NCBI RefSeq assembly: GCF_044647545.1
Contig: NZ_CP172818.1
DNA from: Escherichia coli
GTDB taxonomy: Bacteria > Pseudomonadota > Gammaproteobacteria > Enterobacterales > Enterobacteriaceae
Length of the DNA: 64,000 bases
Reading direction: 5' to 3' (one strand)
Shown: positions 60,119-63,411 of the stretch, one piece after another
Position numbering within the stretch: the first letter of the stretch is position 1
How the letters are laid out: every line of letters begins with the position of its first letter
The notes under the pieces: generated by a model
What the model was told of the DNA's origin: nothing
The model's input: the letters and a program-made list of their open reading frames with translations, nothing else
Databases searched by the model: none
Program-made: the position numbers and the translations under genes

Positions 60119-60934
60119 TTACCAGCCTTTAACAGCGCCGCCGTTAAACACTTTGTTTGCTGCTTCGTAAACTTCGTCAGACTGATAAGCCTGAACGAAT
60201 TTCTTCACGTTTTCGGCGTCTTTGTTGTCTTCACGCGTTACGATCAGGTTTACGTACGGGGACTCTTTATCTTCGACAAAGATACCGTCTTTCGCTGGAG
60301 TCAGGCCAATCTGGCTGGCATAGGTGGTATTGATAACTGCCAGAGCGATTTGCGCGTCGTCCAGAGAGCGCGGCAGCTGCGGTGCTTCCAGTTCAACAAT
60401 TTTCAGATTTTTTGGGTTCTCAACAACATCAAGAACGGTCGGCAGCAGGCCAACGCCATCTTTCAGTTTGATCAAGCCCACTTTTTGCAGCAGCAGCAGT
60501 GAACGACCAAGGTTAGTTGGGTCGTTTGGCACGGCAACCTGCGAACCATCCTGCAGTTCATCCAGTGATTTGATTTTCTTGGAGTAACCTGCAATCGGAT
60601 AAACAAAAGTGTTGCCTACTGCGACCAGTTTGTAGCCACGATCTTTCAGTTGCTGATCAAGGTACGGTTTATGCTGGAAGGCGTTGGCGTCGATATCGCC
60701 TTTGCTCAATGCTTCGTTTGGCAGAACATAGTCGTTGAAGGTTACCAGCTCAACGTCCAGGCCATATTTGTCTTTCGCAACTTTCTGCGCGACTTCTGCA
60801 ACCTGCTGTTCGGCACCAACAATCACGCCGACTTTAATGTGGTTTGGATCTTTTTCATCCTGACCGCAGCCTACCAGTGCCAGTGATCCAATCAGGGCTC
60901 CCACTGCCGCAAAGGTTTTGAATTTGAACGCCAT
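60119..60934 (-). CDS. metQ: D/L-methionine ABC transporter substrate-binding lipoprotein (271 aa)
   Basis: MAFKFKTFAAVGALIGSLALVGCGQDEKDPNHIKVGVIVGAEQQVAEVAQKVAKDKYGLDVELVTFNDYV. Confidence 0.95.
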   Translation of the reverse strand: MAFKFKTFAAVGALIGSLALVGCGQDEKDPNHIKVGVIVGAEQQVAEVAQKVAKDKYGLDVELVTFNDYVLPNEALSKGDIDANAFQHKPYLDQQLKDRGYKLVAVGNTFVYPIAGYSKKIKSLDELQDGSQVAVPNDPTNLGRSLLLLQKVGLIKLKDGVGLLPTVLDVVENPKNLKIVELEAPQLPRSLDDAQIALAVINTTYASQIGLTPAKDGIFVEDKESPYVNLIVTREDNKDAENVKKFVQAYQSDEVYEAANKVFNGGAVKGW

Positions 60935-60973: not shown

Positions 60974-61627
60974 TTACTTGCGAGTGACAGCCCGGACGAT
61001 GCGGTCGCCTGCGAACTGAATTAAATAAACCAGAATGACCAGCAATACCAGTACCGTATTCATCACCGTCGCGTTGTAGCCGATGTAGCCATACTGATAG
61101 CCAATCTGACCTAAACCACCGGCACCGACTGCACCACCCATCGCGGAATAACCGACCAGGGTAATCAGGGTGATAGTCGCAGCATTCACCAGACCCGGCA
61201 ATGCTTCCGGTAACAGCACTTTACGGACGATCTGCATCGGCGTGGCACCCATTGCGCGGGAAGCTTCAATTAACCCGGTTGGGATCTCCAGCAGAGCGTT
61301 CTCGACCATACGGGCAATAAACGGTGCTGCACCAACGGTTAACGGAACAATCGCTGCCTGCAAACCAATCGATGTACCGACAATAACTCGGGTAAACGGA
61401 ATCATCCATACCAGCAAGATAATGAACGGGATAGAACGGAAAATGTTCACAATCGCAGAAACGGTACGATACAGCTTCGCGTTAGCAATAATTTGCCCCG
61501 GACGCGTGACATAAAGCAGGACGCCAACCGGCAGACCAATCACAAACCCAAAAAATCCGGATACGAAGGTCATTGCCAGCGTTTCCCATACGCCACGAAC
61601 CAGCAGCCACATCATCGGCTCAGACAT
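60974..61627 (-). CDS. metI: D/L-methionine ABC transporter permease (217 aa)
   Basis: [78 protein letters not shown]. Confidence 0.95.
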
Positions 61628-62651
61628 AACCCAGTACCTCTACTTTTACATGGTGTTCCTGCAGCCAGGCAATGGCGGCTTGCGTATCTTGTTGTGTACC
61701 GTGCATTTCAGTCAGCATGATGCCGAACTTAACGCCACCGGCGTAATCCATCTGCGCACTAATAATGTTGTTGTTGACGTTGAAACGACGCGCGGTTTCA
61801 GAAAGCAGCGGGGCATCAACCGATTGACCGGTAAACTCCAGACGCAGCATTGGCACGCAGTCAGCGAATGGTTCCGCTTGCAGACGTTCTTGATAATCTT
61901 CCGGGATATCCAGATGCAGGGTCGACTGAATAAACTTCTGCGCCAGCGGCGTTTTCGGATGCGAGAACACTTCACTTACCGTGTCCTGCTCGATCAACTC
62001 GCCATTACTGATCACCGCCACGCAATCACAAATGCGCTTCACAACGTCCATTTCGTGGGTGATCAACAGAATCGTCAAACCCAGACGACGATTGATGTCT
62101 TTCAGCAGTTCGAGAATAGAACGTGTCGTTGCCGGGTCCAGCGCGCTGGTGGCTTCATCACACAGCAATACTTTGGGATTGCTGGCTAATGCACGGGCAA
62201 TCGCCACACGTTGTTTCTGCCCACCGGAAAGATTCGACGGGTAGCTATCATGCTTATCGCCAAGACCAACCAATGACAGCAATTCCGTCACGCGACGTTT
62301 GATCTCGTCTTTCGGTGTGTTGTCCAGCTCCAGCGGCAGAGCAACGTTGCCAAAAACAGTACGCGAAGAGAGCAGGTTAAAATGCTGGAAAATCATACCA
62401 ATCTGGCGACGAGCTTTGGTCAACTCGGATTCTGACAGCGTGGTCAGTTCCTGGCCATCGACCAGCACGCTACCCTCGGTTGGGCGCTCCAGCAGGTTTA
62501 CACAACGTATAAGCGTACTCTTACCCGCGCCTGAGGCACCGATAACGCCATAAATTTGTCCAGCTGGCACATGCAGGCTGACGTTGTTCAACGCCTGGAT
62601 GGTGCGGGTGCCCTGGTGGAACACTTTGGTGATATTCGAAAGTTTTATCAT
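61620..62651 (-). CDS. metN: D/L-methionine ABC transporter ATP-binding protein (343 aa)
   Basis: [62 protein letters not shown]; [15 protein letters not shown]; C-terminal NIL domain; overlaps metI start. Confidence 0.95.
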
Positions 62652-62733
62652 TGATTATTTATTATCGTCATTAAGTTAGTCGTGGCATTTCGAATGCCTG
62701 GAACGGGCAACGCCGTCAATGAAATGGATGTTA

Positions 62734-62757
62734 AGGCATCCAGACGTCTAAATCAAT
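62734..62757. promoter_or_regulatory. MetJ operator (met boxes) upstream of metN
   Basis: aggcatcc-AGACGTCT-aaatcaat: one perfect 8-bp met box AGACGTCT flanked by degenerate tandem copies. Confidence 0.65.
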
Positions 62758-62838
62758 CAGGTTTATGCGAAGAGCACTTTCTTGCAGGTCGAAACATGCG
62801 ATACTAGCGTCACATGCCTTATTAAGGAGCTATAAAAG

Positions 62839-63411
62839 GTGGCGAAGAGCGTACCCGCAATTTTTCTTGACCGTGATGGCACCATTAATGTCGATCACGG
62901 CTATGTCCATGAGATCGACAACTTTGAATTTATCGACGGTGTTATTGACGCCATGCGCGAGCTAAAAAAAATGGGCTTTGCGCTGGTGGTAGTAACCAAC
63001 CAGTCTGGCATTGCTCGCGGTAAATTTACTGAAGCACAGTTTGAAACGCTGACCGAGTGGATGGACTGGTCGCTGGCGGACCGCGATGTCGATCTGGATG
63101 GTATCTATTATTGCCCGCATCATCCGCAGGGTAGTGTTGAAGAGTTTCGCCAGGTCTGCGACTGCCGCAAACCACATCCGGGGATGCTTTTATCGGCACG
63201 CGATTATTTGCATATTGATATGGCCGCTTCTTATATGGTGGGCGATAAATTAGAAGATATGCAGGCAGCGGCTGCGGCGAACGTGGGAACAAAAGTGCTG
63301 GTGCGTACGGGTAAACCTGTTACGCCTGAAGCAGAAAACGCGGCGGATTGGGTGTTAAATAGCCTGGCAGACCTGCCGCAAGCGATAAAAAAGCAGCAAA
63401 AACCGGCGTAA
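62839..63411 (+). CDS. gmhB: D-glycero-beta-D-manno-heptose-1,7-bisphosphate 7-phosphatase (190 aa), GTG start
   Basis: (V)[62 protein letters not shown] (HAD motif DRDGT). Confidence 0.93.

Follow-up and report, generated by a model that had tools for sequence, protein, structure and literature searches.

The intergenic region between metN and gmhB is 187 bp long and occupies exactly positions 62652–62838 of the window (the whole 64-kb stretch of E. coli DNA that was analysed), as given by both the list of open reading frames and the RefSeq annotation. In the RefSeq annotation of a 100%-identical strain, the minus strand carries tsaA-rcsF-metQ-metI-metN in this order, after which gmhB and the rrnH operon lie on the plus strand. 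An earlier, sequence-only reading of the window had drawn the bounds of the spacer in the same places, and these are borne out by the metN ATG at 62651 (minus strand) and the gmhB GTG at 62839 (plus strand). A 1.2-kb query around the spacer matched 5424 of 5426 complete E. coli genomes, with the genes annotated as metN and gmhB. Compared with K-12 MG1655, the spacer shows two differences only, at 62689 (T/C) and 62701 (G/A), both within the metN 5' UTR; there are no indels, so that MG1655 coordinates are converted to window positions by subtracting 159,994.

Several further features of the locus were recorded. The last 8 nt of metN, stop codon included, are shared with the reading frame of metI, suggesting translational coupling of the two genes. 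Kim et al. 2012 (PMC3415461) mapped an internal start site with 14 reads at 61635 (minus strand; MG1655 221629), which falls within the 3' end of metN, 8 nt before metI. On the other side of the spacer, GmhB has 190 residues in comparison to 191 in K-12, with 188 of the 190 identical (A145V and V160I relative to K-12), which is ordinary strain variation. Downstream of gmhB lie the rrnH promoters P1 (~63491) and P2 (~63599), both on the plus strand (Cappable-seq, MG1655 223485 and 223593), and the 16S rRNA gene rrsH begins at ~63777, the end of the window falling within it.

Table 1. Coding sequences and control elements at the metN–gmhB locus (window coordinates).
Feature	Position	Strand	Remarks
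metQ CDS, substrate-binding lipoprotein	60119–60934	−	
metI CDS, permease	60974–61627	−	overlaps the end of metN by 8 nt (61620–61627)
metN CDS, methionine ABC transporter ATPase	61620–62651	−	first gene of metNIQ; ATG at 62651
metN TSS (A)	62720	−	Kim et al. 2012 (PMC3415461) supplement; 69-nt 5' UTR
Inverted repeat TGGATG-CCTTAA-CATCCA, then TTTCATT	62725–62742	−	terminator-like in simple scan
Met box 3, TAACATCC in metN sense (GGATGTTA on plus strand)	62726–62733	−	3.63 bits; −13 to −6 of metN TSS
metN −10 hexamer TAACAT (4/6)	62728–62733	−	within met box 3; seven bases, then +1
Met box 2, GGATGCCT in metN sense (AGGCATCC on plus strand)	62734–62741	−	4.22 bits; −21 to −14 of metN TSS
Met box 1, AGACGTCT, perfect consensus, palindromic	62742–62749	−	12.58 bits; −29 to −22 of metN TSS
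metN −35 hexamer TTGATT (4/6)	62751–62756	−	read relative to the published TSS; 17-bp spacer to −10
gmhB extended −10, TGcGATACT	62797–62805	+	read relative to the TSS; GATACT seven bases upstream
gmhB TSS (A)	62812	+	Cappable-seq U00096.2 222806, score 31.4 (PMC4782308 supplement); 27-nt leader
gmhB Shine-Dalgarno, AAGGAG	62825–62830	+	from the sequence; AGGAG core conserved
gmhB CDS, heptose 1,7-bisphosphate phosphatase	62839–63411	+	GTG start at 62839

Candidate MetJ sites were scored with the published MetJ information-weight matrix and its thresholds (Augustus & Spicer 2011, PMC3228920, Table 3), by which a single box has to exceed 3.15 bits and the total of an array has to reach the consensus score of 12.58 bits. 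A perfect met box had been proposed at 62742–62749, and AGACGTCT is indeed present there with the full consensus score. The degenerate repeats said to flank it were found on the metN side, as two further boxes of 4.22 and 3.63 bits, but not on the opposite side. The three boxes are contiguous, in register and gap-free over 62726–62749, in the order AGACGTCT GGATGCCT TAACATCC in metN sense. Boxes 2 and 3 are weak, barely exceeding the single-box cut-off, while the octamers adjoining the array score −19.4 and −9.9 bits with the same matrix and are thus strongly negative, which sets the number of boxes at exactly three.

The octamer AGACGTCT occurs as a single copy within the window. With 0.46 copies expected per 64 kb, and at least one copy in 38 of 100 shuffles, the lone octamer is within chance expectation and not significant, and for this reason the score of the tandem array was used as the statistic. 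The three-box array totals 20.43 bits and is the sole site in the 64 kb to pass the published thresholds, so that the weight-matrix scan suggested as a check by the sequence-only reading supports the site. An array this strong anywhere in 64 kb was obtained in 1 of 500 dinucleotide-preserving shuffles, and threshold-passing sites of any strength at 0.63 per shuffled window. The hallmarks of a MetJ operator, namely two or more contiguous boxes, a passing matrix score and placement at the promoter of a methionine-transport gene, are all found here.

The literature has linked MetJ with metNIQ from 2002 onwards, and regulon databases have followed, the original metD papers reportedly being Gal 2002 and Merlin 2002. 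In Augustus & Spicer 2011 (PMC3228920), the b0199 metN entry of Table S1 lists 20.45 bits, three boxes, a gap of 74 and the sequence agacgtctggatgccttaacatcc; the window from 62749 to 62726 agrees with this published site base for base, with 74 bp separating 62726 from the ATG. The metNIQ site was also among the 'known metboxes' from which that matrix was seeded (Augustus & Spicer 2011, PMC3228920). The feature is already known: it is the published MetJ operator of metNIQ, here in another E. coli strain. Literature searches found neither a primer-extension result nor a base-resolution MetJ footprint for the metN operator, and no paper combining metNIQ, MetJ and a TSS.

Repression of metNIQ by MetJ, as expected from the perfect box, has been measured in vivo. 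With lacZ placed behind 400 bp of sequence upstream of E. coli metN, the repression ratio between wild type and ΔmetJ was 0.05, i.e. 20-fold repression by MetJ (PMC3228920). This is the outcome on which the sequence-only reading had staked its claim, since a metN promoter fusion free of MetJ-dependent repression would have refuted it. Gel shifts on E. coli operators are reported in the same paper (Augustus & Spicer, PMC3228920). In RNA-seq of an E. coli ΔmetJ strain, the log2 fold changes were 3.98 for metN, 3.80 for metI and 3.61 for metQ (an increase of ~12–16-fold), and the value for metN in a Salmonella ΔmetJ strain was 4.27 (~19-fold). Furthermore, a review describes metD expression as regulated by methionine and MetJ, and metNIQ belongs to the core MetJ regulon in reconstructions based on comparative genomics.

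The position of the operator can be read against mapped transcription start sites, both of which (metN and gmhB) come from high-throughput maps, the Cappable-seq entries consulted for this region being those of the plus strand. The metN start was mapped at NC_000913 222714 (minus strand) with 83 reads and a UTR of 69 nt; the 50-mer upstream of it is TCGCATAAACCTGATTGATTTAGACGTCTGGATGCCTTAACATCCATTTCA, ending ...TTGATTTAGACGTCTGGATGCCTTAACATCCATTTCA, and metN of Klebsiella pneumoniae starts from the corresponding A behind the same operator (Kim et al. 2012, PMC3415461). Measured from this start, the boxes reach from −29 to −6 and cover both the promoter spacer and the −10 hexamer, a geometry that supports occlusion of the promoter. 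A consensus promoter scan with a cut-off of 9/12 did not pick up the metN promoter, which at 8/12 falls below that limit. The same scan also missed the extended −10 of gmhB, and listed two sites unsupported by TSS data.

On the opposite strand, the claim that gmhB is transcribed divergently from the same spacer holds, given the orientation of the gene and the Cappable-seq start at 62812. The gmhB promoter is of the extended −10 type with no recognisable −35, and 109 of the 117 species with full flanks among the matches listed, Erwiniaceae included, preserve its TGn-ATAMT element. Counted from the gmhB TSS, the met boxes occupy −63 to −86, their nearest edge being 63 bp away. Two extra, weak plus-strand starts are present in the Cappable-seq data, one at 62673 (MG1655 222667), antisense within the metN 5' UTR region, and one inside gmhB at 62884 (MG1655 222878).

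Conservation was examined through the 24-mer of the operator; exact copies are present in at least 120 species-representative genomes, which belong to Enterobacteriaceae and Erwiniaceae. The carriers include Escherichia, Salmonella, Citrobacter, Klebsiella, Enterobacter, Cedecea and Buttiauxella and, within the Erwiniaceae, Pantoea, Erwinia, Tatumella and Mixta. The flanks were compared in the 117 loci with full flanks among the matches listed, all of them selected by exact operator match; the conservation of the operator itself is therefore circular, and the sample is silent on species with diverged boxes. Informative conservation consists in the breadth of taxa and in the conserved flanks. 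Among these listed matches, a metN start (MIKL) was found 59–81 bp downstream, with a mode of 76, in 112 of the 117, the DRDG motif of gmhB on the other side in 111, and AAATCAA, which contains the −35, adjoins box 1 and lies outside the search pattern, in 114. The remainder of the spacer, again among the matches listed, is poorly conserved except for the gmhB −10 and two blocks in the metN 5' UTR.

These two blocks are GAAAATGCCACGG (mRNA sense, ~62680–62692, minus strand) and GATAATAAATAA (mRNA sense, 62655–62666, minus strand), the latter directly before the metN ATG, a start codon that has no Shine-Dalgarno sequence. They are conserved across Enterobacteriaceae and partly in Erwiniaceae (117 spacers among the matches listed), and are spaced by 16 bp in 54 of the 57 species among those matches that keep both words. 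By consensus scan, ATGCCA-16-GATAAT (62688..62661) is promoter-like; no TSS at the block pair is present in the table of Kim et al. 2012 (PMC3415461), and a literature search found no description of the two blocks. It is a tentative and rather doubtful proposal that they form a second promoter, independent of MetJ, from which a metN mRNA almost devoid of leader would arise, or else an element of post-transcriptional control or translation enhancement, a role in translation or stability being equally possible as a second promoter. A second promoter, if any, would be weak, because the table of Kim et al. holds no start there and the metN fusion keeps 5% activity when repressed.

Other structures in the metN leader were also considered. 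The palindrome GGCATT-TCG-AATGCC (62684–62698) is perfect here, and the C of K-12 at 62689 breaks its sixth pair. As a conserved hairpin or protein site it was rejected, being imperfect in K-12 and having a right arm that is not conserved between genera; the latter point makes it probably not a functional hairpin. Within 62695–62720 (minus strand), the first ~25 nt of the metN mRNA, a small 5'-proximal hairpin occurs in most species with differing sequences, its stems being ACGG/CCGU, GGUAAC/GUUACU, CAGGC/GCCUG and GCUUUUAU/AUAAAAGC. Folding of the first 30 nt of the metN mRNA is slightly more favourable than that of shuffled sequences (mean z −0.8), and RNAalifold found no consensus pairs as conserved secondary structure in the metN 5' UTR. 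There are weak hints here of a 5' stabilising stem-loop.

Could the octamer be a chance palindrome of no regulatory role, with metNIQ responding to methionine by some other route? The expectation of 0.46 copies of AGACGTCT per 64 kb would allow it for the single box, but a three-box array arises in just 1 of 500 shuffles, is retained without change in at least 120 species despite divergence of the sequence around it, and sits on the mapped metN promoter, for which MetJ-dependent repression has been published; coincidence is, on these data, extremely improbable. Equally far-fetched is control at the RNA level, in which the inverted repeat at 62725–62742 would act as an attenuator or terminator, or the leader would carry a SAM riboswitch as in the metNIQ operons of Firmicutes. 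The simple scan does list TGGATG-CCTTAA-CATCCA as terminator-like, but its T-run is poor and, lying upstream of the metN TSS at 62720, the repeat is absent from the metN mRNA. The repeat is accounted for by met boxes 2 and 3, which are adjacent, near-palindromic and mutual inverted repeats. As for a riboswitch, no Rfam family, SAM riboswitches included, matched either strand of 62400–63000 at E≤1, and a literature search returned nothing relevant for E. coli on a link of GcvB or another sRNA to metN.

A less improbable suggestion, although still very unlikely, is that one operator controls both genes, MetJ bound at 62726–62749 also lowering or raising transcription of gmhB. The genes share the 187-bp spacer with start sites back to back and just 92 bp apart, and at metE/metR and metJ/metB shared metboxes do serve both genes. 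However, the boxes at −63 to −86 lie outside the conserved extended −10 core of gmhB, and the 38 genes whose expression changed in RNA-seq of E. coli ΔmetJ do not include gmhB. Moreover, the metbox table holds no b0200 entry (Augustus & Spicer 2011, PMC3228920), and exbB, which shares its spacer with metC, is bound yet unregulated (PMC3228920). On the basis of its absence from one ΔmetJ list of differentially expressed genes and of its distance from the boxes, gmhB appears not to be under MetJ control. The description of the spacer as a 'divergent control region' is hence correct for the arrangement of the genes and should not be read as co-regulation, since the boxes are outside the gmhB promoter core and gmhB is missing from the ΔmetJ list.

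We conclude that the spacer very probably carries the metNIQ promoter with a built-in MetJ operator, and that gmhB is transcribed separately, apparently outside MetJ control. According to the crystal structure and binding studies, MetJ occupies its operators with one ribbon-helix-helix dimer per box, adjacent dimers bind cooperatively, and SAM is the co-repressor. From this established biochemistry and the geometry of the metN site we infer that, under an ample supply of methionine and, through it, of S-adenosylmethionine, dimers of MetJ-SAM would bind, one to each box, in a cooperative manner nucleated on the perfect box 1. The weak boxes 2 and 3 would then be those that cover the −10 element, and the array lying over the promoter spacer and −10 would deny RNA polymerase an open complex, lowering metNIQ transcription ~20-fold. 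When SAM falls, MetJ would leave and the high-affinity methionine importer would be made.

The arrangement closely resembles known MetJ-controlled systems. With K-12 metN (b0199, formerly abc/metD) it has in common the identical 24-bp operator, the 74-bp distance to the ATG, the flanking genes and the TSS; operator and both promoters are unchanged, the two differing positions of the spacer being in the metN 5' UTR. Like the operators of metA, metB/metJ, metC, metE/metR, metF, metK and mmuP, it consists of tandem, gap-free AGACGTCT-like boxes near a promoter, and its 20.4 bits are bracketed by the remaining E. coli sites of Table S1, which score 15–31 bits (PMC3228920). The metN operator has three boxes, one perfect and two weak, whereas those of metB/J, metF and metA have four that are more even. 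Unlike metE/metR and metB/metJ, its divergent neighbour gmhB is a non-met gene that is apparently not co-regulated. In Firmicutes, the S-box (SAM-I) riboswitch on metNIQ-type transporters follows the same logic, with abundance of SAM shutting off the importer; control there is RNA-based and resides in the leader, in contrast to metN here, where a DNA-binding repressor acts at the promoter and no riboswitch is detectable.

A genuine operator was recognisable in this case from raw sequence, although it carries little weight as a discovery, the link having already been published. With the operator placed at exactly −29 to −6 by the mapped start, occlusion of the −10 element and the spacer would be the natural mechanism for MetJ at metNIQ. 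A conserved promoter of its own serves the LPS-core gene gmhB, and sharing a spacer with metN is insufficient to annotate this gene as MetJ-controlled.
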